DNA from: Paucimonas sp.
GTDB lineage: Bacteria; Pseudomonadota; Gammaproteobacteria; Pseudomonadales; Pseudomonadaceae
DNA length: 64,000 bases
NCBI GenBank assembly: GCA_031253995.1
Contig: JAIRVG010000012.1
Coordinates: 10,700 to 74,699 of the forward strand
Direction: 5' to 3'
Under the pieces are notes generated by a model, which was given only the letters and a program-made list of their open reading frames with translations, did not search any database and was not told the origin of the DNA. The first letter of the stretch is position 1, and each line of letters starts with the position of its first letter. The translations under genes and the position numbers were made by a program. Positions 7,395 through 32,307 of the stretch are shown here, piece by piece.

Positions 7395-8903
7395 ATGCGC
7401 ATCCACGTCAGCTTCATCGACCGCGTCGGCATTACCCAGGAAGTGCTCGCCCTGCTGGGCGCCCGCAATCTCAACCTGGATGCGGTGGAGATGGTGCCGC
7501 CGAACGTCTACATCGATGCGCCGACGCTGAACCCCTTCGTCCTCGAAGAACTCCACGACGCCCTGCTCAACGTGCACGGCGTGCAGACCGTGCGCGTGGT
7601 CGACATCCTGCCCGGCCAGCGCCGCCACCTGCAGCTCGACGCCCTGCTGGCGGCCATGAGCGATCCGGTGCTGGCCCTGGACAGCGCCGGCCACGTGCTG
7701 CTGGCCAACCCGGCGCTGATCGCCCTGTGCGGCCAGGAGCCAGCAGGGCGCAGCATCGCCGAGCTGTTCGATGCTCCGGAACTGCTCGCCAGCCTGATCG
7801 AACAAGGCTTCCGCCTGCCGATGCGGGAAGTGGTGCTCAACGGCCAGACCCTGTTGCTGGACGCCACGCCGATCACCGACGCTGGCGCCCTGGTCACCCT
7901 GTACCCGCCGAACCGCATCGGCGAACGCCTGTCGGCCCTGCACCACGACCATGCCGAGGGCTTCGACGCCCTGCTCGGCGAATCGCCGGCGATCCGCACC
8001 CTGAAGACCCGCGCCCTGCGCGTCGCCGCCCTTGACGCGCCGCTGCTGATCCACGGCGAGACCGGCACCGGCAAGGAACTGGTGGCCCGTGCCTGCCACG
8101 CCATCAGCAGCCGCCACGCCGCGCCGTTCCTGGCCCTCAACTGTGCGGCGCTGCCGGAGAACCTCGCCGAGAGCGAGCTGTTCGGCTACGCACCCGGCGC
8201 CTTCACCGGCGCCCAGCGCGGCGGCAAGCCGGGGCTGATGGAGCTGGCCAACCAGGGCACGGTGTTCCTCGACGAGATCGGCGAGATGTCGCCGTACCTG
8301 CAGGCCAAGCTGCTGCGTTTCCTCAACGACGGCAGCTTCCGCCGGGTCGGCGGTGATCGCGAGGTGCGGGTCAACGTGCGCATCCTCAGCGCCACCCACC
8401 GCGACCTGGAAAAGATGGTGGCCGAAGGTGCCTTCCGCGAAGACCTGTTCTACCGCCTCAACGTCCTCAACCTGGAAGTGCCGCCGCTGCGCGAGCGCGG
8501 CCAGGACATCCTCCTGCTGGCGCGCTACTTCATGCAGCAGGCCTGCACCCAGATCCAGCGCCCGCTGTGCCGCCTGGCCCCGGACACCTACCCGGCCCTG
8601 CTCGGCAACCGCTGGCCGGGCAACGTGCGCCAGTTGCAGAACGTGATCTTCCGCGCCGCCGCCATCAGCGACAGCAGCCTGGTGGACATCGGCGACCTGG
8701 ACATCGCCGGCACCTCGGTGGCGGGTACCCAGGACGGCGAGGTGGCCAGCCTGGAGCAGGCGGTGGAAAACTTCGAGAAGAACCTGCTGGAAAAGCTCTA
8801 CGCCGACTATCCGTCGACGCGCCAGCTGGCCAGCCGCCTGCAGACCTCCCACACCGCCATTGCCCATCGGCTGCGCAAGTACGGGATCTCGGGGAAGAGC
8901 TGA
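7395..8903 (+). CDS. gcsR: TyrR-like sigma54 enhancer-binding protein (glycine cleavage regulator)
   Basis: ACT-like N-terminus, PAS, GETGTGKE Walker A, GAFTGA loop, C-terminal HTH (SHTAIAHRLRKYG); located upstream of gcvH. Confidence 0.88.
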   Translation: MRIHVSFIDRVGITQEVLALLGARNLNLDAVEMVPPNVYIDAPTLNPFVLEELHDALLNVHGVQTVRVVDILPGQRRHLQLDALLAAMSDPVLALDSAGHVLLANPALIALCGQEPAGRSIAELFDAPELLASLIEQGFRLPMREVVLNGQTLLLDATPITDAGALVTLYPPNRIGERLSALHHDHAEGFDALLGESPAIRTLKTRALRVAALDAPLLIHGETGTGKELVARACHAISSRHAAPFLALNCAALPENLAESELFGYAPGAFTGAQRGGKPGLMELANQGTVFLDEIGEMSPYLQAKLLRFLNDGSFRRVGGDREVRVNVRILSATHRDLEKMVAEGAFREDLFYRLNVLNLEVPPLRERGQDILLLARYFMQQACTQIQRPLCRLAPDTYPALLGNRWPGNVRQLQNVIFRAAAISDSSLVDIGDLDIAGTSVAGTQDGEVASLEQAVENFEKNLLEKLYADYPSTRQLASRLQTSHTAIAHRLRKYGISGKS

Positions 8904-8905
8904 GA

Positions 8906-9667
8906 TCACTCGGGCATGTTCGCGCTCGCCGTGCAGTCCTGTCCGGCCGTGCAGGACGCTCGGGCAATCTTCTCGCAATGGCCGTAGGTGCGGCTGCTAC
9001 TGCTGTTCGGAGATACCTCTCCGTTGGCCAGCGGTTTGAAGAACACTGCCGAAGTGGGTGGCACCTCCGCACAGGAACCGTGCTGTTCGTTCCCTTGGGC
9101 GAAATCTTCGAGGAAGGACAATATCCCCGGCTTCAGCCCACCCCAGGTATTCGGGGTCTGGATGACCGCTACGTTCTTCACTGCGCCATTGCTTTCGTCG
9201 CGCACCGAGAGCTGAAAGTTGCCCGGCGTAAGGCGTTTGAGCAGGAACACGTATTTGACGCCCTCTTTCCAGGGGTACGCCACCCAGCACTGGACGCCCG
9301 ATCCTTCGTGGTCGAAGAAGCCGCAATTGACTCCCGCGCCTTCCATGTCCCACCGGATCGCTTTCCAGATCGAGAAATTGATGCGTTTCTCGTTCGCGGA
9401 ATTGGCTTGCAAACCCGCATAGCCAACATCCCCGTTCTCGATCCAGAACTGCGTGGCCCAGAACGTGCGCCCGTTGTAGCCCGGCTCGGTATCGATCCGC
9501 AGCGCAAACTCCAGCGCGGTGTAGCCATTGGGTTTCTCGGGGAACCCGCGCTCGATAGCGACCATACCACCTGCCTCCACTCTCTCGGGCCCGGCACTCG
9601 CCCACATCGGACCCAAGGAACACAACATAAGGAAGAACAACGGGCAAAGGCCCAGGAACCGATTCAT
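8906..9667 (-). CDS. Secreted protein, DUF3472-like (accessory)
   Basis: GGAG RBS 7 nt before the ATG at 9667; Sec signal peptide ending ASA-G. GYAGLQ, INFSIW, FDHEGSGVQC and YPWKEG resemble DUF3472 motifs. Six Cys in the mature part; third codon positions visibly more A/T-rich than the flanks. Confidence 0.6.
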   Translation of the reverse strand: MNRFLGLCPLFFLMLCSLGPMWASAGPERVEAGGMVAIERGFPEKPNGYTALEFALRIDTEPGYNGRTFWATQFWIENGDVGYAGLQANSANEKRINFSIWKAIRWDMEGAGVNCGFFDHEGSGVQCWVAYPWKEGVKYVFLLKRLTPGNFQLSVRDESNGAVKNVAVIQTPNTWGGLKPGILSFLEDFAQGNEQHGSCAEVPPTSAVFFKPLANGEVSPNSSSSRTYGHCEKIARASCTAGQDCTASANMPE

Positions 9668-9756
9668 AAGCACGCTCCAATCAGTACATGGTCTGGCGCT
9701 GTACTTCGAACTCAGCGGATCAGCAATGAGCATGAGGGCTTGAGGTGCTGACGTAA

Positions 9757-9774
9757 ACTGACAGAAATATCAGT
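9757..9774 (-). promoter_or_regulatory. 18-bp imperfect palindrome upstream of the DUF3472-like gene
   Basis: Minus strand ACTGATATTTCTGTCAGT; 15/18 identical to 27957-27974. Confidence 0.5.
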
Positions 9775-9775
9775 C

Positions 9776-9836
9776 TGTACTGAATTCAATACACCGTATC
9801 GAATTCAATACAGACCGTTGTAACAACGCTGTAGCA
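9776..9836 (+). promoter_or_regulatory. Three tandem 18-bp TyrR-type boxes (GcsR enhancer)
   Basis: TGTACTGAATTCAATACA (9776-9793), CGTATCGAATTCAATACA (9795-9812) and TGTAACAACGCTGTAGCA (9819-9836), about 120-180 nt upstream of the sigma54 site. Confidence 0.65.
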
Positions 9837-9957
9837 AGGCGTTGATCTGGCGAAACATTTTTCTCATGCCCTTGCCGTAGCGATTTCATTACAGGGTTTT
9901 TCAAAAACGGTCAGGAAAAATCGACCAAAGCCTTGATTAACAGGGCTTTTCCGGACA

Positions 9958-9973
9958 TGGCCGCAAACTTGCT
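9958..9973 (+). promoter_or_regulatory. Sigma54 -24/-12 promoter of the gcv operon
   Basis: TGGCCGCAAACTTGCT, with exact GG-N10-GC spacing. Confidence 0.8.
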
Positions 9974-10058
9974 ATGGAAATTCCAACCCCGGCCTGCCGT
10001 GTTCATCCGGCGGGCCAATCCCGCATCCGGCCGCTACGGCGGCCTTCGAGGAGTTTCC

Positions 10059-10442
10059 ATGAGCGAGTTGCGTTTCACCGAAGATCACGAATGGCTGCGT
10101 GCCGAAGCCGACGGCAGCGTAACCGTGGGCATCACCGCCTTCGCCCAGAACGCGCTGGGTGATGTGGTCTATGTGCAACTGCCGGAACTGCAGCACTACG
10201 CCAAGGGCGCCGAAGCCTCCACCGTGGAATCGGTGAAGGCTGCCAGCGGCGTGTACATGCCGCTGGACGGCGAAGTGGTCGAGGTTAACGGCGACCTGGA
10301 CTCCAACCCCGAGCTGGTCAACGAAGACCCGCTGGGCCAAGGCTGGTTCTTCCGCTTCATCCCGGCCGACGCCGGCGCCGTCGCGCAACTGCTCGACCAG
10401 GACGCCTACGACCGCCTGCTCAACGCCAACGCCGACGCCTGA
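10059..10442 (+). CDS. gcvH: Glycine cleavage system H protein
   Basis: TVESVKAAS lipoyl-lysine motif; [17 protein letters not shown]; GAGGAG RBS. Confidence 0.97.
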
Positions 10443-10452
10443 GGAACCCGCC

Positions 10453-13308
<2,856 letters not shown>

Positions 13309-13316
13309 GTTCGCTT

Positions 13317-13383
13317 GAGGGCCTCATCGCTGCTCCCACACCGCTGAACCTGTGGGAGCTGGCTTGCCAGCGATAGGGCCCTT
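13317..13383. repeat. Inverted REP doublet with a 9-nt deletion in the left copy
   Basis: ATCGCTG[GCAAGCCAG missing]CTCCCACA-spacer-TGTGGGAGCTGGCTTGCCAGCGAT. Confidence 0.85.
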
Positions 13384-13407
13384 GACCACTCCGTAGAGGA
13401 ACCTGCC

Positions 13408-14784
<1,377 letters not shown>

Positions 14785-14809
14785 CATCCCATTGAAACCA
14801 GGAGTCCAC

Positions 14810-15934
14810 ATGTCCACCGAAACACTGCTGAAAACCCCGCTGCACGCCCTGCACCTGGAGCTTGGCGCGCGCATGGTGCCCTTCGCCGGCTACGACATGC
14901 CGGTCCAGTACCCGCTGGGGGTGATGAAGGAGCACCTGCACACCCGCGAGCAGGCCGGCCTGTTCGACGTCTCGCACATGGGCCAGATCCGCCTGCGCGG
15001 CGCCGACGCGGCCAAGGCCCTGGAAACCCTGGTGCCGGTGGACATCATCGACCTGCCGGTCGGCATGCAGCGCTACGCCATGTTCACCAACGAAAACGGC
15101 GGCATCCTGGATGACCTGATGGTCGCCAACCTCGGTGACGGCGAGCTGTTCCTGGTGGTCAACGCCGCCTGCAAGGACCAGGACCTGGCGCACCTGCGCC
15201 AGCACATCGGCGACCAATGCGAGATCGAAGCGCTGTTCGAGGAACGTGCGCTGCTGGCCCTGCAGGGCCCGGCCGCGGTCAAGGTGCTGGAGCGCCTGGC
15301 GCCGCAGGTGGCGAAGATGACCTTCATGCAATTCGCCCCGGTACAACTGCTGGGCGAAGACTGCTACGTCAGCCGCTCCGGCTACACCGGCGAAGACGGC
15401 TACGAAATCTCCGTGCCGGCGCACAAGGCCGAGGCCCTGGCTCGCCGCCTGCTGGAAGAACCGGAAGTGGCCGCCATCGGCCTGGGTGCCCGCGACTCGC
15501 TGCGCCTGGAAGCCGGCCTGTGCCTGTATGGCCATGACATGAATACCGAGACCACCCCGGTGGAGGCCAGCCTGCTCTGGGCCGTGTCCAAGCCTCGCCG
15601 TGCCGATGGCGCGCGCGCCGGCGGTTTCCCGGGTGCTGCGCAGGTCTTCGCCCAGCAACAGGCTGGCGTGGCCCGCAAGCGCGTCGGCCTGCTGCCGCAG
15701 GAGCGTACGCCGGTACGCGAAGGCGCAGAGATCGTCGACGAAGCTGGCCAGGTGATCGGCCAGGTGTGCAGCGGCGGCTTTGGCCCGACGCTCGGCGCTC
15801 CGGTTGCCATGGGCTACCTGGACAGCGCGCACTGCGCCCTCGATACCCCGGTCTGGGCCGTGGTGCGGGGCAAGCGCGTGGCGATGAAGGTCAGCAAGAT
15901 GCCGTTCGTTGCTCAGCGCTACTACCGCGGCTAA
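14810..15934 (+). CDS. gcvT: Glycine cleavage aminomethyltransferase T
   Basis: LFDVSHMGQ, RSGYTGEDGYEI and GLGARDSLRLEAG motifs; AGGAG RBS. Confidence 0.97.
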   Translation: MSTETLLKTPLHALHLELGARMVPFAGYDMPVQYPLGVMKEHLHTREQAGLFDVSHMGQIRLRGADAAKALETLVPVDIIDLPVGMQRYAMFTNENGGILDDLMVANLGDGELFLVVNAACKDQDLAHLRQHIGDQCEIEALFEERALLALQGPAAVKVLERLAPQVAKMTFMQFAPVQLLGEDCYVSRSGYTGEDGYEISVPAHKAEALARRLLEEPEVAAIGLGARDSLRLEAGLCLYGHDMNTETTPVEASLLWAVSKPRRADGARAGGFPGAAQVFAQQQAGVARKRVGLLPQERTPVREGAEIVDEAGQVIGQVCSGGFGPTLGAPVAMGYLDSAHCALDTPVWAVVRGKRVAMKVSKMPFVAQRYYRG

Positions 15935-15945
15935 GCCAAGGACAA

Positions 15946-16013
15946 CAGGTGTCATGGTGCGTTGGGGATATTCGATTTCGAACGCACTGGCACCCATTCG
16001 AACATGACGCCTG
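15946..16013 (+). other. Nested stem-loop in the gcvT 3' UTR
   Basis: CAGGTGTCATG pairs with CATGACGCCTG and encloses GTGCGTT/AACGCAC; G-U pairs favour the plus-strand RNA. Confidence 0.45.
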
Positions 16014-16119
16014 GCGATGCCCGGAAAAAGGGCGTTAAGGAACCGCCGATAATCGCCTAAAAAGCCTAAAAGCTGCGGTCTCCAGGGCTTGTTTTTCCCG
16101 GCGAAGTTAGCGTAGAGTC

Positions 16120-16291
16120 GTTGCACTGTGTTTGCATGGGTCGCGTGGTTAGTGACCTGGAACAGTAGGCTGAGATTCGCTACAACCGTTCGACGTCTCT
16201 TACTTTCCTGCAACCCAGCCCAGTGCTCTTTCATTACAAACCGATGAAAGAAACTGTAATCACAATTCAAGAGTTTCAAAGGGAATAAGAC
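16120..16291 (+). promoter_or_regulatory. Long structured 5' leader of the cold-shock gene
   Basis: Follows a TTGTTT-N18-TAGAGT promoter candidate; hairpins GGTCGC/GTGACC and CTTTCAT/ATGAAAG. Boundaries approximate. Confidence 0.4.
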
Positions 16292-16504
16292 ATGTCTACA
16301 CGTCAGAGCGGTACCGTCAAGTGGTTTAACGACGAGAAAGGTTTCGGTTTCATCACTCCTGAGAGCGGTCCGGATCTGTTCGTACACTTCCGCGCCATCC
16401 AGGGCAACGGTTTCAAATCCCTGAAAGAAGGCCAGAAAGTGACCTTCATCGCCGTGCAAGGCCAGAAAGGCATGCAGGCTGATGAGGTTATCGCTGAAGC
16501 CTAA
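16292..16504 (+). CDS. Cold-shock protein (CspA family)
   Basis: [15 protein letters not shown] (RNP1) and LFVHFRAI (RNP2); 70 aa. Confidence 0.97.
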
Positions 16505-16520
16505 GTCTTCGCGATCCCCG

Positions 16521-16553
16521 AAAAGCCCCTGTCAATGACAGGGGCTTTTTTTT
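16521..16553 (+). terminator. Rho-independent terminator
   Basis: AAAAGCCCCTGTC-AAT-GACAGGGGCTTTTTTTT. Confidence 0.9.
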
Positions 16554-16601
16554 GCGCGCAATTCCGTAGAATGCACGCTTTTGCGCCAGGAGCTTCACTC
16601 G

Positions 16602-17090
16602 ATGCCGAAACCACTGCTCCAGCCACAGGGCGACTTCCCGGTTGCCGGACTGGGCCGCCGCTTTGCGGCGATGTTCTATGACTTTTTGCTCTGCACTGCC
16701 CTGCTCATGGTGACCACGCTGGTCTACAAGATGATCCAGATGGCGTTCATCGGTGAAACGCGGATGCGCGCCTTGACCGAAGCCGGCGCCCTCGATGGTG
16801 ATCCGCTGCTGTCGACGATCCTGGTGTTCGCCCTGTTCGGCTTCTTTGCCAAGTTCTGGACCCATGGCGGCCAGACCCTGGGCATGCAGGTCTGGGGCGT
16901 GCGGGTGCAGAACGCCGACGGTAGCGCAATCAGCCTGTGGCAGGCGCTGCTGCGCTTCGTCATCTCGATCGGTTCGTGGCTGTGCCTGGGGCTGGGGTTC
17001 TTCTGGGTGTTGATCGACAAGCGCAAGCGCAGCTGGCATGACATGTATTCGGAAACGCAGTTGGTGCGGGTTCCCAAGCGCAAGAAGTGA
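16602..17090 (+). CDS. RDD family membrane protein
   Basis: RRFAAMFYD, GQTLGM and SWHD motifs; AGGAG RBS. Confidence 0.9.
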   Translation: MPKPLLQPQGDFPVAGLGRRFAAMFYDFLLCTALLMVTTLVYKMIQMAFIGETRMRALTEAGALDGDPLLSTILVFALFGFFAKFWTHGGQTLGMQVWGVRVQNADGSAISLWQALLRFVISIGSWLCLGLGFFWVLIDKRKRSWHDMYSETQLVRVPKRKK

Positions 17091-17101
17091 TGTTGTTCTT
17101 T

Positions 17102-17137
17102 CGGGCCTGATCGCTGGCAAGCCAGCGATCAGGCCCG
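17102..17137. repeat. Collapsed REP doublet (perfect palindrome)
   Basis: CGGGCCTGATCGCTGGC-AA-GCCAGCGATCAGGCCCG; the core equals the REP inner palindrome with CGAT tails on both sides. Confidence 0.8.
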
Positions 17138-17153
17138 CACTGACAACAGAAAT

Positions 17154-17185
17154 GAAAAAGCCGACCTCAATGGGTCGGCTTTTTC
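17154..17185. terminator. Bidirectional intrinsic terminator
   Basis: GAAAAAGCCGACC...GGTCGGCTTTTTC between convergent RDD and lptG. Confidence 0.85.
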
Positions 17186-17203
17186 ACATCTACAGGAAAC
17201 GGT

Positions 17204-18265
17204 TCAACCCGCCCTGCGCAACAACCACAGCCCCGCCAGCGCACAGATCCCCGCCGGCAGCAGCACCGCCAGCAGCGGCGGGAAGCCGAACACCTGGCTC
17301 GACGGCCCCAGCAGATCCTGGGCAATGCGGAACACGAAGCCCACCAGCACGCCAGTGAACACCCGCTGACCCAGGGTCACCGAACGCAGCGGGCCGAAGA
17401 TGAACGAGATCGCCATCAATACCAGCGCCGCCGTCACCAGTGGCTGCAGGACCTTGGTCCAGAACGCCAGCCAGTAGCGATCGTTGTTCAGGCCCTGGTC
17501 GGACAGGTAGTGGATGTAGTCCCACAACCCGGTGATCGACAGCGATTCCGGCGCCATCACCACGGTATTCAGCAGTTGCGGGGTCAGGGCGACGTCCCAG
17601 CGCTCTTCTGCAGTCTTCACCACTTCAGTGTGGTCACCACGGAACAGGGTGGTGGTGACGTCGGTGAGCAGCCAGTGATCCTGTTGGTACTGGGCGCGGC
17701 GGGCAAAGCTGGACGACTGCATGTGCCGCTCGCTGTCGAAGCGATAACGGGTCACACCCAGCATCAGGCCATTCGGCTGCACGGTGTTGATGTGCACGAA
17801 CTCCTCGCCCTGGCGGTGCCACAGTCCGCGCTTGGAGGTCTGCGCCTCGCCACCGCCCTGGGCCAGGGAACGATCGGCCTGGGCCTTGTTCTCGGTCACC
17901 GGGGCGACGTACTCGCCGATCAGCACGCCAGCCAGCATCAGCACCAGCATGGGCTTCATCACCGCCCAGACGATACGGCCGATGGACACGCCGGCGGCGC
18001 GCATGATGGTCAGCTCGCTGTTGCTGGCCAGGCTGCCGAGGCCGATCAGGCAGCCGATCAGGCCCGCCATCGGCAGCATGTCGTAGAGGCGCCGCGGCGC
18101 GGTCAGTGCCACGAACTGGCCGGCATCCCACAGGGTGTAGGTGTCGCTGATGTCGCCCATCTCGTCGATGAAGGCGAACAGCGACGCCAGGCCGAGAATG
18201 ATCCCCAGCACGGCGAGGATCGCCATGAACACACTGCTGCCGATGTAACCGTCGAGCTTACGCAC
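17204..18265 (-). CDS. lptG: LPS export ABC permease LptG
   Basis: YjgP/Q family with SELTIMRAAGVS motif; GTG start overlapping the lptF stop region. Confidence 0.93.
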   Translation of the reverse strand: MRKLDGYIGSSVFMAILAVLGIILGLASLFAFIDEMGDISDTYTLWDAGQFVALTAPRRLYDMLPMAGLIGCLIGLGSLASNSELTIMRAAGVSIGRIVWAVMKPMLVLMLAGVLIGEYVAPVTENKAQADRSLAQGGGEAQTSKRGLWHRQGEEFVHINTVQPNGLMLGVTRYRFDSERHMQSSSFARRAQYQQDHWLLTDVTTTLFRGDHTEVVKTAEERWDVALTPQLLNTVVMAPESLSITGLWDYIHYLSDQGLNNDRYWLAFWTKVLQPLVTAALVLMAISFIFGPLRSVTLGQRVFTGVLVGFVFRIAQDLLGPSSQVFGFPPLLAVLLPAGICALAGLWLLRRAG

Positions 18266-19373
18266 GGGCCACCTCCGCACGACGCGCGCTCAGTTTCAGG
18301 CGCAGCGGCTCCCAGTACATCAGCCCAAGGCCGATCACCAGGAACAGCGCGTGCACCGGCCACAGGCCCAGGGCCAGCGGGATCTTGCCTTTTTCCAGGG
18401 CGCCGCGGGCGGCAATCAGAATCGTCAGGTAGGCCATATACAGGAGAATCGCCGGCAGCAGCTTGAGGAAACGGCCCTGGCGCGGGTTGACCCGCGACAG
18501 CGGCACCGCCATCAGGGTAACGATGAACACCAGCAGCGGCAGCGACAGGCGCCACTGCAGCTCGGCACGCTCACGCGGGGCATCGCTCTTGAACAGCTCG
18601 GAGGTCGGGATGGCTTCGCGCTCGGTGATGTCCTGGCTGACTTCCGGCTTGGGCAGCAGCACGCCGTAGGTGTCGTACTTGATCGCCCGGTAGTCGGCCT
18701 GGCCCGGGTTGCCATCGTAGCGGTAGCCGTTTTCCAGGATCAGGTAGCGGTTGCCGTCGGCCTGCACTTCCTGGCGGCCCTTCTCGGCCACCAGCACGCT
18801 GATGCCACGGTCCTTGCTCTTGTCGCTGTTGAAGCGTTTCTCGGAAATGAACACGCCACCCAGGTTGGCGCGGTCATCGGACAGCTGCTCGGTGTAGGTC
18901 ACCCGGGTGCCATCGCGCAAGGTCTGGAAACGGCCCGGCACCAGGGTGTCGAACTCGGTCAGGGCGTCCTGCTGGTTGATGATCCGGGCAACCTGGGCAA
19001 CGCCCTGCGGCGCCAGGCTCAGGCTCAGCCAGGCGACGATCAGCGCAACCAGCGCGGCCGGGGCCATGGTCATGCGCAGCAGGCGTTGCTGGCTCATGCC
19101 GGTGGCGGACAGCACGGTCATCTCGCTTTCGAGGTACAGGCGACCGTAGGCCAGCAGGATGCCGAGGAACAGCCCCAGCGGCAGGATCAGCTGCAGGAAG
19201 CCCGGCAGCCGGTAGCCCATGATCATGAACAGCACGCCCGGATCGAGCATGCCCTGTGCGGCCTGGGCCAGGTATTTGATGAAGCGCCCGCTCATGATGA
19301 TCACCAGCAGCACGGCGCTGACGGCACTCAAGGTCACCAGGACCTCGCGGGACAGATAACGGAAGACGATCAA
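18258..19373 (-). CDS. lptF: LPS export ABC permease LptF
   Basis: IVFRYLSREV, ESEMTVLSATG and PRQGRF motifs. The TTG start is better spaced from AGGAG than the GTG at 19382. Confidence 0.93.
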   Translation of the reverse strand: MIVFRYLSREVLVTLSAVSAVLLVIIMSGRFIKYLAQAAQGMLDPGVLFMIMGYRLPGFLQLILPLGLFLGILLAYGRLYLESEMTVLSATGMSQQRLLRMTMAPAALVALIVAWLSLSLAPQGVAQVARIINQQDALTEFDTLVPGRFQTLRDGTRVTYTEQLSDDRANLGGVFISEKRFNSDKSKDRGISVLVAEKGRQEVQADGNRYLILENGYRYDGNPGQADYRAIKYDTYGVLLPKPEVSQDITEREAIPTSELFKSDAPRERAELQWRLSLPLLVFIVTLMAVPLSRVNPRQGRFLKLLPAILLYMAYLTILIAARGALEKGKIPLALGLWPVHALFLVIGLGLMYWEPLRLKLSARRAEVARA

Positions 19374-19499
19374 ACCAGACACTCCTGGGTTGTCAGGCTC
19401 GGACAGCCAAACAAGGGAAACGTTGCAACCAACAAGAAGATAGTTGCCGGTGCGTCAATGCACCCGGACTTCGAAGTGCGCGCATTATCCTGTGATTGA

Positions 19500-21158
<1,659 letters not shown>

Positions 21159-21199
21159 CCGGATGCCGGTCGGTCCCGTGACCGGCCGGCGACTGCCTC

Positions 21200-21628
21200 A
21201 TGAGCCAAGTCGACTTCTACATCCTGCCCACGCCCTCGCCGGCCGCGCGCCTGGACTTCGCCTGCAAGCTCTGCGAAAAGGCCTGGCGCCTCGGGCACCG
21301 GGTCTACCTGAACTGCAGCGACGCCGCCCAGCGCGATGAGCTGGACGCCCGCCTCTGGGCGTTCAAGGGCGAGGCCTTCGTGCCCCACAGCCACGCCGAG
21401 GCCGATGCCGCGGCGGCGGTGGCCCTGGGCATCGGCGACAACCCCGGCGAACACCAGGACCTGCTGGTCAATCTCGACCTCAAGGTGCCGCCGTTCGCCG
21501 CGCGCTTCGCCCGCATCGCCGAGATCGTGGTCGAAGATCCGGCGATCCGCCAGGCGACCCGAGAGAGTTTCCGCTTCTACCGCGAACAGGGCTATGCTCT
21601 GCAAGATCACCGCTTACAGCGATTCTGA
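21200..21628 (+). CDS. holC: DNA polymerase III chi subunit
   Basis: VDFYIL, LDARLW...FVPH and RESFRFYREQG motifs; follows pepA. Confidence 0.95.
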   Translation: MSQVDFYILPTPSPAARLDFACKLCEKAWRLGHRVYLNCSDAAQRDELDARLWAFKGEAFVPHSHAEADAAAAVALGIGDNPGEHQDLLVNLDLKVPPFAARFARIAEIVVEDPAIRQATRESFRFYREQGYALQDHRLQRF

Positions 21629-21633
21629 CGACG

Positions 21634-21999
21634 ATGGACAAACGCCCGCCCCTGCCCCAATCCGCCCATCTGCTGGACGACCTGGAGTCGATCCGCCAGT
21701 TGCTGGGTGATGAAACCCTGCAACCGCCCCTGCTGACCGACACCGTGGAAGAACAGATCCCGCTGCTGCTGGAACCTGCCGACGACCTCGCGCCAGCCGC
21801 CCCTGCCGCCGCGCCGGTGGAAGAAGTCGACCCGCAGACCCGTCGCCAGGACACCCTGCTGCACCTGGACGCCGAGTTGCGAGCGGCGGCGCAGTTGATC
21901 ATGCAGGACGTGATCGACGATTTCGCCCCGCATATCGAGAACGAGATCAAGCGCCGCCTCGACGCCCGCCTCGAACGCCTGCTCAACCAGTCTTCCTGA
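21634..21999 (+). CDS. Conserved hypothetical protein with PopZ-like architecture
   Basis: 121 aa: N-terminal helix LLDDLESIRQLLGDE, acidic Pro/Ala-rich linker, C-terminal amphipathic helices. The ORF is solid; the PopZ link is inference. Confidence 0.75.
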   Translation: MDKRPPLPQSAHLLDDLESIRQLLGDETLQPPLLTDTVEEQIPLLLEPADDLAPAAPAAAPVEEVDPQTRRQDTLLHLDAELRAAAQLIMQDVIDDFAPHIENEIKRRLDARLERLLNQSS

Positions 22000-22028
22000 G
22001 CTACTCCAGCCTGAAGGCCTGCACAGGA

Positions 22029-22121
22029 CCCTGTGGGAGCTGGCTTGCCAGCGATTTGGCCAGACCTGACAACATCATTGCCCTTGCCGGCCTCATCGCT
22101 GGCAAGCCAGCTCCCACAGGG
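22029..22121. repeat. REPIN (inverted REP doublet, GTGGGAG ends outward)
   Basis: CCCTGTGGGAGCTGGCTTGCCAGCGAT-spacer-ATCGCTGGCAAGCCAGCTCCCACAGGG. Confidence 0.9.
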
Positions 22122-22218
22122 GTTATGTGTTGCCCGCACCCTGCTTATCGCCTCAACCCCCCGCCTCCGTTATACTTCCCGGCTTTCCCGAATAAATGCC
22201 ATAGGGTCCCCCCGCGCA

Positions 22219-25065
22219 ATGGATAAGACCTACCAGCCGCACGCCATCGAAACTTCCTGGTACAACACCTGGGAGTCCGAGAATTACTTCGCCCCGCAAG
22301 GTGCAGGCGAGTCGTACACCATCATGATCCCGCCGCCGAACGTCACCGGCAGCCTGCACATGGGTCACGGCTTCAACAACGCGATCATGGACGCCCTGAT
22401 CCGTTTCCGCCGCATGCAAGGGCGCAACACCCTGTGGCAGCCGGGTACCGACCACGCCGGTATCGCCACCCAGATGCTGGTGGAGCGCCAGCTCGAAGCC
22501 AAGGGCCAGAACCGTCACGACCTGGGCCGCGAGAAGTTCCTGGAAAAGGTCTGGGAATGGAAGGATCAATCGGGTGGCAACATCAGCCGCCAGATCCGCC
22601 GCCTTGGCTCTTCCGTGGACTGGAGCCGCGAGCGCTTCACCATGGACGACGGCCTGTCCGAAGCGGTCAAGGAAGCCTTCGTGCGCCTGCATGAAGACGG
22701 CCTGATCTACCGCGGCAAGCGCCTGGTCAACTGGGACACCAAGCTGCACACGGCCATCTCCGACCTCGAAGTGGAAAACCACGACGAGAAGGGCCACCTG
22801 TGGAACCTGCGCTACCCGCTGGCCGACGGCGCGAAAACCGCCGAGGGCAAGGACTACCTGGTGGTCGCCACCACCCGTCCGGAAACCATGCTGGGCGACG
22901 CCGCCGTCGCGGTGAACCCGAACGACGAGCGCTACCAGGCCCTGATCGGCAAGTTCGTCGAGCTGCCGCTGGTCGGTCGCCGCATCCCGATCATCGCCGA
23001 CGACTACTGCGACCCCGAGTTCGGTACCGGCTGCGTGAAGATCACCCCGGCCCACGACTTCAACGACTATGAAGTCGGCAAGCGCCACAGCCTGCCGCTG
23101 CTGAACATCTTCGACAAGAACGCCATGGTCCTGGCGGCCGCCCAGGTGTTCAACCTCGACGGCAGCGTCAACGAAGCCATCGACGGCAGCCTGCCGGAGA
23201 AGTACGCCGGTCTCGACCGCTTCGTCGCGCGCAAGCAGATCGTCGCCGACTTCGACGCCCTGGGCCTGCTGGTCAGCGTCGACGACCACGCCTTGAAAGT
23301 GCCGAAGGGCGACCGCTCCGGCACCGTCATCGAGCCGTGGCTGACCGACCAGTGGTACGTCTCCACCAAGCCGCTGGCCGAACCTGCCATCGCCGCCGTT
23401 GAAGACGGCCGCATCCAGTTCGTGCCCAAGCAGTACGAGAACATGTACTTCTCCTGGATGCGCGACATCCAGGACTGGTGCATCAGCCGCCAGCTGTGGT
23501 GGGGCCACCGCATCCCGGCCTGGTACGACGAGTCCGGCAAGGTCTACGTCGGCCGCAGCGAGGAAGAAGTCCGGGCGAAGAACAATCTCGGCGCCGATGT
23601 CGTCCTGAACCAGGACAACGACGTCCTCGACACCTGGTTCAGCTCCGGCCTGTGGACCTTCTCCACCCTCGGCTGGCCGCAGCAGACCGAATTCCTCAAG
23701 ACCTTCCACTCCACCGACGTGCTGGTCACCGGCTTCGACATCATCTTCTTCTGGGTCGCCCGGATGATCATGCTGACCATGCACCTGGTGAAGAACGAGG
23801 ACGGCACCCCGCAGGTTCCGTTCAAGACCGTGTACGTCCACGGCCTGGTCCGCGACGGCCAAGGCCAGAAGATGTCCAAGTCCAAGGGCAACGTCCTCGA
23901 CCCGCTGGACATCGTCGACGGCATCACCCTCGACGCCCTGCTGGAAAAACGCACCAGCGGCATGATGCAGCCCAAGCTGGCCGAGAAGATCGCCAAGCAG
24001 ACCAAGGCCGAATTCCCCGAAGGCATTGCCAGCTACGGCACCGACGCCCTGCGCTTCACCTTCTGCTCGCTGGCGTCCACCGGTCGCGACATCAAGTTCG
24101 ACATGGGCCGCGTCGAAGGCTACCGCAACTTCTGCAACAAGATCTGGAACGCCGCCCGCTACGTGCTGGACAAGGGCGAGGACTGCGGCCAGAACGGCGA
24201 GGCCTACGAGCTGTCGCTGGCCGACCGCTGGATCATCTCGCAGCTGCAGCGCACCGAAGCCGAAGTGACCCGCCAGCTGGAGCAGTTCCGCTTCGACCTG
24301 GCTGCCCAGGCCCTGTACGAGTTCATCTGGAACCAGTACTGCGACTGGTACCTGGAACTGTCCAAGCCGGTGCTGTGGGACGAGAACGCCCCGGTCGAGC
24401 GCGCCCGCGGCACCCGTCGTACCCTGGTGCGCGTGCTGGAAGTGGCGCTGCGCCTGGCCCATCCGTTCATGCCGTTCATCACCGAAGAGATCTGGCAGCG
24501 CCTGGCGCCACTGGCCGGCATCGATGGCAAGACCATCATGCTGCAGCCATGGCCTGAAGCGAACGACAGCCGCATCGACGCCGCTGCCGAAAGCGACATC
24601 GAGTGGGTCAAGGAGCTGATGCTGGGCGTGCGCAACATCCGCGCCGAGATGAACATCGGTCCGGGCAAGCCGCTGCAGCTGTTCCTGAAGAACGCCACTG
24701 CCGAAGACCAGCGTCGCCTCGGCGAGAACGAAGCGCTGCTGAAGAAGCTGGCGAAGATCGAGTCGTTCACCGTGCTCGCCGAACAGGACGAAGCCCCGCT
24801 CAGCGCCACCGCGCTGGTGGGCGACCTGCAAGTGCTGGTGCCGATGGCCGGCCTGATCGACAAGGACGCCGAGCTGGCGCGCCTGAACAAGGAAATCCAG
24901 CGTCTGCAAGGCGAAGTCCAGCGTGTCGGCGGCAAGCTGTCCAACGCCGCCTTCGTCGACAAGGCCCCACCGGCCGTGATCGACAAGGAACGCGCCAAGC
25001 TGGCCGAGGCCGAACAGGCCCTGGCCAACTTCACCGAGCAGCACGCGCGGATCGCCGCCCTTTAA
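22219..25065 (+). CDS. valS: Valine--tRNA ligase
   Basis: [13 protein letters not shown] and KMSKS motifs; C-terminal coiled coil. A TATACT -10 candidate lies at 22171-22176. Confidence 0.98.
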
Positions 25066-25070
25066 GCGAC

Positions 25071-25157
25071 GCAGACCTTGTGGGAGCTGGCTTGCCAGCG
25101 ATGACGATAGTGAATTCACCATCGCAATCGCTGGCAAGCCAGCTCCCACAGGTCTGC
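25071..25157. repeat. REPIN forming a near-complete hairpin
   Basis: GCAGACC-TTGTGGGAGCTGGCTTGCCAGCGAT-GACGATAGTGAATTCACCATCGCA-ATCGCTGGCAAGCCAGCTCCCACA-GGTCTGC. Spacer and flanks are also self-complementary. Confidence 0.92.
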
Positions 25158-25190
25158 GGCAAGCCAACAAATCATGCGGTAATCCTTGAG

Positions 25191-25210
25191 AGCGGGCCTG
25201 GCCCGCTTTT
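25191..25210 (+). terminator. Possible intrinsic terminator after valS
   Basis: AGCGGG-CCTGG-CCCGCT-TTT, only a few nt upstream of the rlmF start. Confidence 0.4.
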
Positions 25211-25216
25211 GTATTC

Positions 25217-26170
25217 ATGACCATGAACAAACCCACCCTGCACCCCCGCAACCGCCACCAAGGCCGCTACGACTTCCCGCAGCTGATCAAGAGCAGCCCG
25301 GAACTGGCGCGTTTCACCATCACCAATCCCTACGGCAAGCCGAGCATCGACTTCGCCGACCCGGAAGCGGTGCGGGTGTTCAACCGGGCGCTGCTCAAGG
25401 CCCAGTACGGCATCCAGTTCTGGGATATCCCCGCCGACTACCTGTGCCCGCCGATCCCAGGCCGTGCCGACTACCTGCACGCCCTGGCCGACCTGCTGGC
25501 CGAGGAAAACGGCGGGGAAATCCCCCGGGGTGCGCAGGTCCAGGCGCTGGATATCGGCGTCGGTGCCAACTGCATCTACCCGCTGTTGGGCAATGCGGAT
25601 TACCGCTGGCGCTTCGCCGGCTCGGACATCGACCCGGTGGCACTGGCGTCAGCCAAGGCCATCGTCCAGGCCAACCGCCTCGACAAGTTCATCAGCCTGC
25701 GCCAGCAGGGCAATCGCAAGCACATCCTCACCGGCCTGCTGGCCGCCGAGGAGCGCTTCGACCTGACCCTGTGCAACCCGCCCTTCCACGCCTCGCGCGA
25801 GGAAGCCACCCGCGGCAGCCAGCGTAAATGGCGCGCCCTGGGCAAGGCCGATCCCAAGCGCAAGCTGCCGGTGCTGAACTTTGGCGGGCAGAACAACGAA
25901 CTGTGGTGCGAAGGCGGCGAGATCCGCTTCGTCACCCAACTGGTGCAGGAGAGCAAGGCGCTGGGCCAGCAAGTGCTGTGGTTCAGCAGCCTGGTGTCGA
26001 AAGCCTCCAACCTGCCCGGTATCGAGGCGGCGCTGAAGAAGGCCGGGGCGGTCGAGCAGCGGGTGCTGGAGATGGGCCAGGGACAGAAGCAGAGCCGCCT
26101 GGTGGCCTGGACCTTCCAGGACGCACAGGCGCGCCAGCAATGGTGCCAGCAACGCTTCCACGGCAAGTGA
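25217..26170 (+). CDS. rlmF: 23S rRNA m6A1618 methyltransferase
   Basis: [39 protein letters not shown] and CNPPF motifs. Confidence 0.95.
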
Positions 26171-26189
26171 AGGACAATCTGCAGGCATG

Positions 26190-26228
26190 AAAAAACCGCG
26201 TCGGGCTTGCACCCGGCGCGGTTTTTTT
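26190..26228. terminator. Bidirectional intrinsic terminator
   Basis: AAAAAACCGCGTCGGG-CTTGCA-CCCGGCGCGGTTTTTTT between convergent rlmF and hupN. Confidence 0.88.
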
Positions 26229-26243
26229 CGAGCGGTCTACAAC

Positions 26244-26525
26244 TTACTTGTTGACTGCGTCGGTCAGCACTTTGGCTGGAACGAACTTCACGACTTTCTT
26301 GGCAGCGATTTCGATGGCAGCGCCAGTCGAAGGGTTGCGGCCGGTACGGGCAGGACGCTCGGTGATCTTCAGCTTGCCAATGCCTGGCAGGGTGATTTCG
26401 GCGCCGTTTTCCAGTTGATCAGCAACGATCTGGCCCAGTTGCTCCAGAGCGTTACGCGCGGTGGTTTTCGGCGCGTCGATAGCTTCAGCGATATCGGCGA
26501 TCAGTTGGTCTTTGGTCAATGCCAT
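26244..26525 (-). CDS. hupN: HU family DNA-binding protein (HupN type)
   Basis: LTKDQLIADIAE and RPARTGRNPSTG motifs; 93 aa. Confidence 0.88.
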   Translation of the reverse strand: MALTKDQLIADIAEAIDAPKTTARNALEQLGQIVADQLENGAEITLPGIGKLKITERPARTGRNPSTGAAIEIAAKKVVKFVPAKVLTDAVNK

Positions 26526-26935
26526 GGTGGTGTTCCTTCCCTAATCAAATTCAGTGGGTTTGCAGAGTGCCGCGTCAGCCATCGGTTCCGGCGTCGCATA
26601 GTGGCGGTGGCCGGGATACATCCATTTTGCCAATCGCGTATGTAGATGCCTAAAAATGCGATTGGTTCGACGGGACGCCAGCGGTCTGCCAGCACTGCGC
26701 CGCACAGGGGGCGCAAGACCGGGCAAAACTACCACAGGAATAGATAAATATCCGCCTCGCCCGGCGCAAATGTTCAGGTTTTTCGGGGGTTTACACAAAA
26801 TATCGCAAAAAACAGAACGAAAAACGAACCCGAGGTCACCCAAGCCACCGCAGAACCCCGTGCCGATGCCCGGCTGGGTTACACTTGGCAACTTTGCCAC
26901 GCCCCGCGCCACCCTTTCATCGAGCCGAGAATTCC

Positions 26936-27943
26936 ATGCCGATCCGTCATTGCATCGTCCACCTGATCGACAAGAAACCCGACGGCAGCCCTGCGGTATT
27001 GCACGCCCGCGATTCCGAACTGGCCGAGTCGACCGCCATCGAAAACCTCCTCGCCGACCTCAACGACAGCTATAACGCCAAGCAGGGCAAGGCCTGGGGT
27101 CTGTTCCACGCCGAGTCCGGCGCCCACCCGTTCAGCGGCTGGCTGAAGGAGTACCTGGACAGCGAAAAGACCTTCACCGAATTCAGCCGGATCGCGGTCG
27201 AGCACCTGCAGAAGCTGATGGAGGAATCCAACCTCTCGGTGGGTGGCCACGTCCTGTTCGCCCACTACCAGCAAGGCATGACCGACTACCTGGCCATCGC
27301 CCTGCTGCACCACAGCGAAGGCGTTGCGGTGAACGCCGAGCTGGACGTCACCCCGTCCCGCCACCTGGACCTGAGCCAGCTGCACCTGGCCGCGCGCATC
27401 AATATTTCCGAATGGCGCAACAACCAGAACTCCAAGCAGTACATCTCCTTCATCAAGGGCAAGAACGGCAAGAAGGTCTCGGACTACTTCCGTGACTTCA
27501 TCGGCTGCCAGGAAGGGGTCGACGGCCCGGGCGAGACCCGCACCCTGCTCAAGGCCTTCAGCGATTTCGTCGAGAGCGAGGACCTGCCCGAGGAAGCCGC
27601 CCGCGAGAAGACCCAGACCCTGGTCGACTACGCCACCAGCCAGACCCGCGCCGGCGAGCCGGTGACCCTGGAGGAACTCTCCGGCCTGATCGACGAAGAC
27701 CGGCCGAAAGCCTTCTACGACCATATCCGCAACAAGGACTACGGCCTCTCGCCGGAGATCCCGGCGGACAAGCGCACCCTCAATCAATTCCGCCGCTTCA
27801 CCGGGCGCGCCGAGGGCCTGTCGATCAGCTTCGAGGCGCATCTGCTGGGCTCGAAGATCGAGTACGACGAGGAAGCCGGGACGCTGATCATCAAGGGCCT
27901 GCCGACCCAGCTCACCGACCAGTTGAAGCGACGCAAGGACTGA
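26936..27943 (+). CDS. yejK: Nucleoid-associated protein YejK/NdpA
   Basis: [23 protein letters not shown] and DYFRDFIGC motifs; 335 aa. Confidence 0.93.
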
Positions 27944-27956
27944 ACCGCCGATCAGA

Positions 27957-27974
27957 ACTGGCATTTTTGTCAGT
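27957..27974 (+). promoter_or_regulatory. 18-bp imperfect palindrome upstream of the halovibrin-like gene
   Basis: ACTGGCATTTTTGTCAGT, followed 23 nt later by a TAGCCT -10 candidate (27998-28003). Confidence 0.5.
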
Positions 27975-28087
27975 AGCAACGCCTCTGCCCGACTCCTTAG
28001 CCTGAGATTGTCGCCACCGGCAATCTCGGCCCCCGCCCAGTTCGTGGTGACTTCCTGCCATTCAGCCTTCGCTTGCCGGGGTGAACG

Positions 28088-29359
28088 ATGAAGACACTCG
28101 CGACGCTTCTCGCACTGACGACCGCACTCGCCTCCGGGACCGCCCCAGCCGGCCCCGGAGAGGAGACGGTCAATGCCATGAATGTTCGTCTCACCGACCA
28201 GAGACTGAACTGCGGGGCGCTCTCGATGCCCGCGGTGCTCTGCACCGGCGTCATCGTCAGGGCCACCGACACTCCAAGGTTCTGGGTACCCCAGGAAAAA
28301 AACATCAGGTCCGGGGCCATCTCAGCCTCGTACCTGCGCAACGATGCCAAGTTCAAGTCCCTGGTCTTTGGCCGCAACAACGGCTTCACCCTGTATCCGG
28401 TGTTGCTCAACCGGCCCAACAACAAAACCTACGAGGTGCTCTGCGCCTTCCCCAACGACGCCGGCACGGATAACCGCAACGATCGCGGCTGCGGCGATCA
28501 TGTGCAAAACGCTGAAGTGCAGGACTATTGCGACGTGCAGGGCATCATGACCGGCGAAGACTGGATCAGGAGATTCGGTGCCGACAAGGTGCAGTACAGC
28601 GAGATCTGCGCCTTCGACATTCGCGACCGGCGCAACGCCCACGCCGGCCCGGCCTTCATGGCCAGCATCAACGCGCGCGTCCTGGGCGGCGAAACCCTGT
28701 TCCCCGTGCAGAACGAACTGCGCATCGCCACCTGGGGCAACAACCCGCCTTTCGACCCGCCGGTGGAAAGCGTCTTCTACACCACACCTCCGGTATCCGA
28801 GACCTCGGGCCTGGAGAGTGCCCGGGCCGGGCAGATCGAATGGTGGCTGGCCACCAGGCAATACCTGCCGCTGGTCAAGCTGAACCTGCCGCAGACCATG
28901 GCGGCCAACCCGCACTTTGGCTTCAACCCGGCGGACCAGGTGATCCAGCCTGTCAGCGAAGCCGACCGGTGCCCGAGTTTCATCAAAAGCTCAGCCTGGA
29001 AAACCGAACGCAAGAGTGCGTACTTCGCCACTCAACTGGACAGCCTGCAGATCGAACTCAGCGATTGCGCGAAAAAGATCCCGCCCAGCCAGTTGAACAA
29101 TCTGTTCAATGAAATTGCCGCCCGCCACTACCGCGACGAGAAATGGGCAGACCACCCGGTCCTTACCGCCGATGCCACACAGAACGCGGCACTGGTCCAG
29201 GCCAAGAACTACGCGCGCCCCGTCCACATCGTCAGCGGCATGCGCGCTCAACTGGCCTGCCAGCTGGCACTGGCGACCCGACCGGCGATCATCACTCTGG
29301 AGCCCAAGCGCCCTGAAGGTGCGAGCGAGGCGCTGAAGAACATGAACTGCAATCCCTAG
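28088..29359 (+). CDS. Secreted halovibrin (HvnA)-like protein with C-terminal DUF2599-like domain (accessory)
   Basis: Signal peptide (residues 1-21). LCTGVIVRAT, SASYLR, NGFTLYP, VLCAFPNDA, RGCG and QNELRI resemble Pseudomonas halovibrin-like proteins. C-terminal MRAQLAC...LEPKRP...CNP resembles DUF2599. Confidence 0.65.
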   Translation: MKTLATLLALTTALASGTAPAGPGEETVNAMNVRLTDQRLNCGALSMPAVLCTGVIVRATDTPRFWVPQEKNIRSGAISASYLRNDAKFKSLVFGRNNGFTLYPVLLNRPNNKTYEVLCAFPNDAGTDNRNDRGCGDHVQNAEVQDYCDVQGIMTGEDWIRRFGADKVQYSEICAFDIRDRRNAHAGPAFMASINARVLGGETLFPVQNELRIATWGNNPPFDPPVESVFYTTPPVSETSGLESARAGQIEWWLATRQYLPLVKLNLPQTMAANPHFGFNPADQVIQPVSEADRCPSFIKSSAWKTERKSAYFATQLDSLQIELSDCAKKIPPSQLNNLFNEIAARHYRDEKWADHPVLTADATQNAALVQAKNYARPVHIVSGMRAQLACQLALATRPAIITLEPKRPEGASEALKNMNCNP

Positions 29360-32211: not shown

Positions 32212-32221
32212 GTGCGGCTTA

Positions 32222-32239
32222 CATCCAATCATCGGATGA
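32222..32239. promoter_or_regulatory. Probable autoregulatory operator of the FadR-family gene
   Basis: CATCC-N7-GGATG containing TCATC-G-GATGA (32229-32239), 11-28 nt upstream of the ATG. Confidence 0.55.
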
Positions 32240-32307
32240 ATTTAGAAAGGAGAAGGGTAACTGGTTGTTTCGACAGAATGCAAACCTGAGGGAGACTGGG
32301 TGTTCTT

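Follow-up and report, generated by a model that had tools for sequence, protein, structure and literature searches.

The 64,000-nucleotide stretch considered here (the window), positions 10,700 to 74,699 of contig JAIRVG010000012.1 in the Paucimonas sp. assembly GCA_031253995.1, is a chromosome segment of a putida-group Pseudomonas obtained from a termite-gut metagenome. It carries two genes, one for a DUF3472 protein (gene 1) and one for a halovibrin-like protein (gene 2), whose products are unrelated to each other and begin with typical signal peptides, as read from the translations. Each gene is preceded by a dyad-symmetric element of 18 bp, here called the box. Box 1 and box 2 are identical at 15 of 18 positions and precede the ATG codons of gene 1 (at 9667) and gene 2 (at 28088) by 89 and 113 nt, respectively, with a -10-like hexamer following each of them (Table 1). 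An initial annotation of the window, made from its letters, had drawn attention to this pair and proposed that one activator, possibly of the LuxR type and encoded elsewhere, co-regulates scattered genes for secreted, toxin-like proteins; the sequences and coordinates of the boxes, their 15/18 identity, and their spacings to the ATG codons and hexamers all proved exact on rechecking. The evidence assembled here indicates that the box is very probably a genuine cis-regulatory site shared by the members of a dispersed regulon, and the likely explanation overall, which we consider the best available, is a lux-type activator site within a compact promoter that small accessory genes carry along with them.

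Within the window, the box is confined to these two positions. A search with the pattern of the initial annotation, allowing up to three mismatches, returned box 1 and box 2 and no third site, and in a position weight matrix (PWM) scan of the window the boxes score 28-33 as compared with 10.8 for the next-best independent site, which bears out the earlier reading that no comparable copy exists elsewhere in the window. A shuffle test of the same pattern gave 0.07 expected occurrences, a figure that is post hoc because the pattern was taken from the data. End-palindromic 18-mer pairs that are alike at 15 or more of 18 positions number 11 in the real window and 2.4 on average in first-order Markov (Markov-1) shuffles, and at least one such pair arises in 91% of these shuffles. 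Judged from the window alone, therefore, the box pair is not beyond chance, and the evidence for real boxes comes from other genomes.

One further sequence in the window has a related layout. A weak CTG-N10-CAG match (ACTGGTTGTTTCGACAGA; 32260-32277, plus strand) lies in the divergent region adjoining the open reading frame (ORF) at 31561-32232 (minus strand), which by synteny with the related locus L001 encodes a GntR/FCD-family regulator; this match is more plausibly an operator serving that regulator itself than a further box.

Table 1. Boxes, boxed genes and adjoining features in the window
Feature	Position	Strand	Description
Gene 1	8906-9667	minus	253 aa; predicted secreted DUF3472 protein, BPSS1860-family
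Box 1	9757-9774	minus (9774-9757 in gene orientation)	ACTGATATTTCTGTCAGT; dyad-symmetric
CATGCT, -10-like hexamer	9729-9734	minus	22 nt past box 1
Gene 2	28088-29359	plus	423 aa; predicted secreted halovibrin-like protein
Box 2	27957-27974	plus	ACTGGCATTTTTGTCAGT; begins 13 nt past the ndpA stop codon
TAGCCT, -10-like hexamer	27998-28003	plus	23 nt past box 2
Inserted cassette	8909-9774	minus	866 bp: gene 1, its leader, promoter, and box 1 as the last 18 bp
GcsR-type sigma-54 enhancer-binding protein gene	7395-8903		upstream of gene 1
TyrR/GcsR-type sites, TGTA-N10-TACA	9776-9793, 9795-9812		TGTACTGAATTCAATACA and CGTATCGAATTCAATACA; inverted pair
Sigma-54 promoter of gcvH	9958-9973	plus	TGGCCGCAAACTTGCT; textbook; about 150 nt after the GcsR-type sites

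Conservation of the boxes and their linkage to inserted genes

The first line of evidence from other genomes comes from orthologous promoters, and it is positive at both loci. Upstream of gene 2 orthologs at four loci (L001-L004; 87%, 57%, 57% and 49% protein identity), ndpA again precedes and 16-18 of the 18 positions of box 2 are unchanged, ACTGATATTTTTGTCAGT and a form ending in TGCCAGT being among the variants; TTAGCCT is retained in four of the five aligned promoters and is replaced by TTACCCT in the fifth, while the remaining spacer has diverged. Orthologs of gene 1 at six loci (63-75% protein identity) are again found between gcsR and gcvH, and in the seven aligned box 1 promoters CTG-N10-CAG, the adjoining TTTAC, and CATGCT are invariant while the intervening 16 nt vary. 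Taken together, the CTG-N10-CAG core is invariant in 12 of 12 aligned orthologous promoters, which represent seven distinct box sequences on which no pattern was imposed, and boxes and -10-like hexamers are conserved down to 49-63% protein identity of the downstream gene, although the surrounding spacer diverges.

At one of the gene 2 loci, the arrangement is an expanded version of that in the window: in P. wadenswilerensis (L004, 1763-5663), a single box precedes a tandem of three DUF2599/halovibrin-like paralogs, which stand in head-to-tail order behind ndpA and are separated by gaps of 14 and 35 nt.

Comparison with loci that lack gene 1 places the box inside the inserted DNA. Among 80 metagenome loci that encode close relatives of gcvH, most with gcsR directly upstream, one contains the DUF3472 gene (on the same contig as L007), and the box is present in that locus only; the 79 gcsR-gcvH loci without a DUF3472 gene are also without the box. 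The window is homologous to L184 and L186, two loci free of the insertion, up to about 8908 (five bases past the gcsR stop) and again from 9775-9782, at the first GcsR-type site, and the breaks at about 8908 and 9775 thus delimit the inserted cassette. The cassette has a GC content of 55% as compared with about 65% in its surroundings, and box 1 is its outermost element. The box therefore belongs to the accessory gene and not to the neighbourhood. For gene 2 the case is only suggestive: the contig of a related strain parts from the window exactly at the stop codon (27943) of ndpA, an NA37-family gene, and continues into hairpin-like sequence, which would be consistent with a second inserted cassette. 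At the gene 1 insertion no target-site duplication was found, and neither cassette has a partner repeat at its far end.

Gene 1 and gcvH-gcvP are divergent, with box 1 located between them; the gcvH sigma-54 promoter precedes gcvH-gcvP-sdaA-gcvT, and one base separates the box from the first GcsR-type site. The possibility that box 1 is part of the adjoining GcsR/TyrR-type array was considered and rejected, as both the DUF3472 gene and the box are missing from 79 of the 80 gcsR-gcvH loci; in five insertion-free gcsR-gcvH loci that were read closely, the TGTA-N10-TACA-type sites are kept. Given this proximity, mutual interference between the regulators of box 1 and of the adjoining GcsR-type site is conceivable.

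Copies of the box across Pseudomonas genomes

A second line of evidence comes from a scan of one genome per bacterial species with the pattern ACTGRYATTTYTGTCAGT; the counts given here refer to the matches listed. At least 23 sites were found in at least 21 Pseudomonas loci, which make up 21 of the 80 loci among the matches listed and derive from the putida group, P. fulva, P. japonica, P. asturiensis and P. amygdali. None of the 21 listed Pseudomonas loci is orthologous to the two loci of the window, and all Pseudomonas scan sites are intergenic. From base composition (an AT-rich 18-mer in genomes of 63% GC, assuming about 1,500 Pseudomonas genomes of 6 Mb), fewer than one match would be expected by chance over all Pseudomonas species genomes, and the box is in more than 50-fold excess in Pseudomonas genomes.

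The Pseudomonas sites are also oriented with respect to genes. A start codon preceded by a Shine-Dalgarno sequence lies 20-150 nt downstream in the direction of the T-run at 19 of 25 Pseudomonas sites, as compared with 6 of 25 on the opposite side, and the observed distances from box to start are 57-111 nt. By the same start criterion, 18 of 23 Pseudomonas scan sites are positive vs 6 of 62 non-Pseudomonas matches (Fisher p = 2e-9). The viral-contig matches (n = 54) were set aside, as they look like chance occurrences in AT-rich phage DNA. Several IMG/VR contigs (L026, 6829-6936; L029, 724-831; L030, 1977-2084) each carry the pattern three times at an exact 45-bp period, which indicates a tandem repeat with a fortuitous match to the motif that is probably unrelated to the Pseudomonas box.

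The genes downstream of the Pseudomonas boxes are small, accessory and diverse, and the genes that flank them are core genes, among them leuA, pnuC, and genes for an amino-acid permease, a TonB-dependent receptor and an aminotransferase. The boxed genes include DUF2599 paralogs (L067, L138); Rhs core fragments with C-terminal toxin domains, here termed Rhs stubs (L093, L102; TIGR03696); EF-hand proteins (L072 and, from reading the sequence, L125 and L134); a helical protein of 116-135 aa at six loci, followed in several of them by an alpha/beta-hydrolase gene; a protein of which one stretch is GbpA-like (L132), to which a truncated ORF (L091) is apparently related; and, among the remainder, a thioredoxin-like protein, a GtrA-like protein and short orphans. 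Further boxes emerged at these loci in a relaxed scan, mostly just upstream of another gene, such that single islets between core genes hold three boxes (L067), a divergent pair (L107) or two boxes (L093 and L138).

Different states of one such islet can be compared at the leuA-bioA locus. Here, L078 (box at 6246-6263) contains the box and an orphan gene, while in L096 (box at 4724-4741) the box is followed by 13 unrelated bases and then by the final 14 nt of the L078 orphan ORF; because these 14 nt persist, L096 is a deletion relic rather than an empty insertion site. The relic box, which now stands before bioA, might influence bioA expression.

These observations bear on the idea that the box has no regulatory role and instead marks where a small mobile cassette ends or recombines. 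Such an origin would account for box 1 forming the last 18 bp of an 866-bp insertion and for box 2 beginning 13 nt past the ndpA stop, where the related contig diverges. However, the box is a single site located upstream of the ORF, with neither a partner at the other end nor a duplication, as would be looked for in a cassette end or an integron attC site; it is oriented toward the gene and keeps a fixed spacing to the -10-like element and the start codon; the islets hold one box per gene, not one per end; and L096, as a deletion derivative, does not represent an empty target. We regard a role as cassette end as very unlikely. Mere chance resemblance between two AT-rich intergenic stretches, which the frequency of comparable pairs in the window shuffles would have allowed, has become close to negligible in view of the conservation in orthologs, the excess in Pseudomonas, the orientation bias and the co-occurrence with the accessory gene.

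Motif and promoter architecture

Alignment of 21 non-redundant promoters on the box gave a logo with an extended motif of about 22 bp, cAACTGRYATTTYTRYCAGTWG, in which two ACTGRYA half-sites surround a T-rich centre (ATTTYT) whose asymmetry gives the box a direction. Several positions are conserved even though the search pattern left them free, namely -1 (A in 14 of 21), +18 (T or A in 21 of 21) and +19 (G in 19 of 21), and the palindrome reaches out to CA...TG. The dyad symmetry extends over 18-20 bp (half-sites ACTGRYA and TRYCAGT), with six of nine pairs matched in each window box; the arms are perfectly symmetric in L082, L093, L114 and L138, whose boxes (ACTGACATTTYTGTCAGT) contain TGACA-N4-TGTCA.

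Downstream of the box, a T-A-n-n-n-T signal is found in independent promoters at +40 to +46, 21-23 nt after the box, in the variants TAGCGT, TAGCCT, TATCGT, TAACGT and TAGTCT. The hexamer composed of the box's last T and the next five nucleotides (TTGCCG, TTGTCG or TAGCAA) is poor as a -35, and a simple sigma-70 scan found no consensus promoter at either of the two window sites. If the T-A-n-n-n-T signal is the -10 element, the box centre would lie at about -43.5 to -44.5, and the recurrence of this signal (TAgcgT) thus speaks for the placement near -44 that had been put forward from the two window sites. The region is contained in one public metatranscriptome, as assembled contigs without 5' ends; from the promoter sequences we infer both the position of the transcription start and activation rather than repression, the latter because a poor -35 and -10 beside a dyad at this position argue for an activator over a repressor.

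In the mechanism that we propose, the box would be bound by a dimeric activator of transcription and would be situated directly upstream of, and overlapping by about one base, a poor -35 (TTGCCG-like), with an equally poor -10 (TAGCGT-like) 21-23 nt further on. Such a promoter would be nearly silent without the activator, which would recruit RNA polymerase as at class II or lux-type promoters. The boxed genes, unrelated and mostly orphan, and inserted singly or in twos or threes between core genes, would then constitute one accessory regulon.

An alternative with the opposite sign is that the box is a repressor operator on the -35, bound by a LexA-like (SOS- or prophage-type), TetR or Xre repressor that silences foreign genes until a signal arrives. 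In favour of this, SOS control of toxin and bacteriocin genes is frequent, the box touches or overlaps the presumed -35, and the gammaproteobacterial SOS box, TACTG(TA)5CAGTA, has in common with the box its CTG-N10-CAG skeleton and AT-rich centre. However, a LexA site lies over a good promoter, whereas the box lies upstream of a weak one, with TTGCCG-like and TAGCGT-like elements and no consensus promoter, such that there would be little to repress. In addition, CTGT-N8-ACAG was not seen, the left arm being CTGA or CTGG and the right arm TCAG or CCAG in the seven distinct unconstrained sequences, and the genes downstream are those for DUF2599, DUF3472 and EF-hand proteins, Rhs stubs and orphans rather than SOS or DNA-repair genes. 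A repressor operator is accordingly improbable.

Several other readings of these sequences were rejected. A sigma-54 promoter is contradicted by ATA variants without GG and by the misfit of the -12 element, and an ECF/AlgU-type promoter (GAACTG...) by wrong spacing and by its absence from box 1. A terminator-like call at 9817-9771 (minus strand) is really the inverted pair of GcsR-type sites together with the T-run of the box. Elsewhere in the window, within a lower-GC patch, an Rfam cspA thermoregulator match (16136-16551, plus strand; 95 bits) spans the leader and coding region of a cold-shock gene.

Products of the boxed genes

The assignment of the two window genes to different families agrees with the initial annotation. 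Gene 1 matches DUF3472 (PF11958) with an E value of 2.8e-25 and 89.9 bits against a gathering cut-off of 24.8, and most of the longer among its 10 homologs found carry an added ricin-type lectin domain. The structure model of its product (mean pLDDT 70, with about 85-94 for residues 71-180) is a beta-sandwich whose closest Foldseek matches are the Bacteroides protein 4qhw and HC7 (8pn3), at E values of 4e-10 to 1e-8, and whose more distant matches are glutamic peptidases and lectins. HC7 is a glycopeptide-binding protein that was crystallised with tri- and tetra-glycopeptides. The predicted fold, together with the ricin-type lectin domain of the relatives, points to a secreted glycan- or glycopeptide-directed protein. 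One study reports DUF3472 proteins in centipede venoms that were acquired by horizontal transfer (PMC7864903).

The C-terminal match of gene 2 to DUF2599 (PF10783) is weak, at 19.7 bits, below the cut-off of 25, while its homologs carry PF10783, and one member of its 87%-identical UniRef cluster is named 'Halovibrin'. The gene is rare, with 17 homologs that all come from Pseudomonas or metagenomes except the most distant (Luteibacter, 33% identity), and the model of its product (mean pLDDT 67.5) found no fold match in the Protein Data Bank (PDB). The link to halovibrin suggests that the product may be an NAD-glycohydrolase.

The Rhs stubs merit comment, as orphan Rhs C-termini are usually regarded as silent spare parts. 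The Rhs 'tips' in L093 (2829-3476; 181 aa) and L102 (3767-4930; 363 aa) consist of the last core repeats and a C-terminal toxin domain, and both are free-standing ORFs with a boxed promoter of their own. More generally, 'effector' and 'toxin' are to be taken as labels by analogy for the boxed genes, with the Rhs stubs alone appearing clearly toxin-type, and several boxed genes lack a signal peptide. The proposal of a cis element common to scattered accessory genes is thus upheld by the orthologous promoters, the copies in at least 23 further sites, and the joint presence or absence of box and gene at gcsR-gcvH, but its extension to exclusively secreted products is not.

The candidate regulator

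No regulator gene was found among the 30 ORFs scanned beside the boxes, and the assignment of a regulator family therefore draws on motif resemblance and on the analogy with P. aeruginosa. On balance we lean towards the LuxR/GerE-type family, for example an N-acyl homoserine lactone (AHL)-binding or other LuxR solo. The las/rhl boxes of P. aeruginosa, including lasB OP1, have the same CTGNCA-N4-TGNCAG layout as the box. To our knowledge, most putida-group strains lack a LuxI synthase, so a LuxR partner in these strains would be a solo. LuxR solos occur in most fluorescent pseudomonads, a P. putida genome carrying as many as four, and a dedicated study identified targets for almost none of them (PMC8546723). 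The CT-N12-AG core of lux-type boxes is present as suggested, and the likeness goes further, to CTG-N10-CAG flanked by CAGTT, which is also seen in the cep boxes of Burkholderia, for which CTGTAAAAGTTACCAGTT is the consensus and ACTGTTAAAGTTGTCAGTTGCC the phuR site (PMC1766932); the phuR cep box is identical to the L071 box and its flanks at 17 of 22 positions.

The analogy with P. aeruginosa concerns the regulation of a halovibrin homolog. HvnA/PA1914 has a signal peptide, a halovibrin domain and DUF2599 (PMC3510237), an architecture that gene 2 appears to match, although species and regulators differ. PA1914 is among the five genes most reduced on LasR inactivation (log2FC, the log2 fold change, of -7.6), together with lasB, rsaL, prpL and the PAAR4-tseT toxin cluster (PMC10509696). 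It is also PqsE-dependent, in a PqsE/RhlR-linked manner (PMC2837411), and the NarL/LuxR-type regulator PprB raises its expression indirectly, by about 30-fold (PMC3510237).

Several points weigh against the proposed regulon or its assignment to a LuxR-type activator. The scan pattern was strict, and the at least 23 sites found with it fix neither the size of the regulon nor its taxonomic limits. The box centre is AT-rich with an oriented T-run (ATTTYT), which is atypical of classical lux boxes. A Pfam scan of 30 ORFs adjoining the boxes yielded core genes or proteins with no match, and no regulator; likewise, there is no LuxR-type regulator among the window ORFs scanned against Pfam, which at the same time agrees with the earlier expectation that the regulator is encoded elsewhere, outside the window. 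Finally, deletion of pplR, a solo of the PpoR type, changed few genes in P. plecoglossicida, by about 2-fold, and the main-text table of the pplR transcriptome contains no obvious boxed gene. A weak hint in the other direction is that pnuC, which neighbours the box in L138, is down 3.4-fold in the pplR deletion.

The same regulon might instead be served by another dimeric activator that recognises TGRYA-N4-TRYCA, such as an OmpR-family regulator of the CusR/CopR kind or a CRP/FNR, LysR or Xre protein. The Escherichia coli CusR box contains TGACA-N4-TGTCA, as do the symmetric variants of the box at four loci, no LuxR gene was found among the ORFs scanned beside the boxes, and likeness of motif cannot by itself assign a family. 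However, TGACA-N4-TGTCA occurs in just 4 of 21 non-redundant sites and no copper or metal-homeostasis genes are found downstream of the boxes, which argues against CusR/CopR, and activators outside the LuxR family generally are disfavoured by the outer ACTG/CAGT(T) arms, which are the most conserved part of the box as they are in cep and lux boxes, and by the LasR dependence of the P. aeruginosa halovibrin homolog. We consider this alternative rather unlikely, though worth keeping in mind.

Implications and comparison with known regulatory systems

We found no published description of the box; searches with motif strings such as TTTTGTCAGT matched primers and, aside from the cep-box paper, unrelated papers. 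The box thus apparently marks an undescribed regulon. It ties together otherwise unannotated genes, namely those for halovibrin-like NADase candidates, glycopeptidase-like DUF3472 proteins, Rhs tips and EF-hand proteins, which would form one co-regulated set whose probable target is a host or competitor. Acquired genes can thus enter a genome with their link to a regulator of the new host in place, as each brings its promoter with it. More speculatively, accessory genes may move as minimal cassettes of box, weak promoter and ORF that plug into a resident circuit governed by an orphan LuxR solo. If so, searches for the box would bring out a strain-specific arsenal (NADase-like, glycopeptidase-like, Rhs-toxin and Ca-binding proteins) that a foreign or host signal turns on, and the boxed genes would be the targets that have long been sought for LuxR solos in fluorescent pseudomonads. 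With dozens of orphan genes behind a sharply defined 22-bp box, a concrete candidate regulon is available for these solos (PMC8546723).

Among known systems, the lux-type boxes, which are dyads overlapping the -35 (PMC1766932), offer the closest parallel. The box has in common with them a dyad of 18-22 bp with a CTG-N10-CAG skeleton and a CAGTT arm, a position that would overlap or abut the -35 of a weak promoter, and an association with scattered genes for proteins of the secreted or virulence type. It differs from cep and lux boxes in its arms, which read AACTG/CAGTT here and ACCTG/CAGGT there, and the targets differ from those of lux-type regulons in being strain-specific cassettes rather than a fixed regulon of the species.

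In its genomic distribution, the box resembles the hrp box recognised by HrpL in P. syringae and the tts box recognised by TtsI in rhizobia, in that a short promoter motif accompanies scattered, acquired and functionally diverse genes, most of them orphans. The hrp box, GGAACC-N16-CCACNNA, is a bipartite promoter for an extracytoplasmic function (ECF) sigma factor, whereas the box described here is a putative dyad site for an activator. Furthermore, in contrast to the hrp and tts systems, there is no linked secretion system, and several of the products use the Sec pathway. In common with the hrp box, however, the motif can be used to enumerate a candidate 'effector' set.

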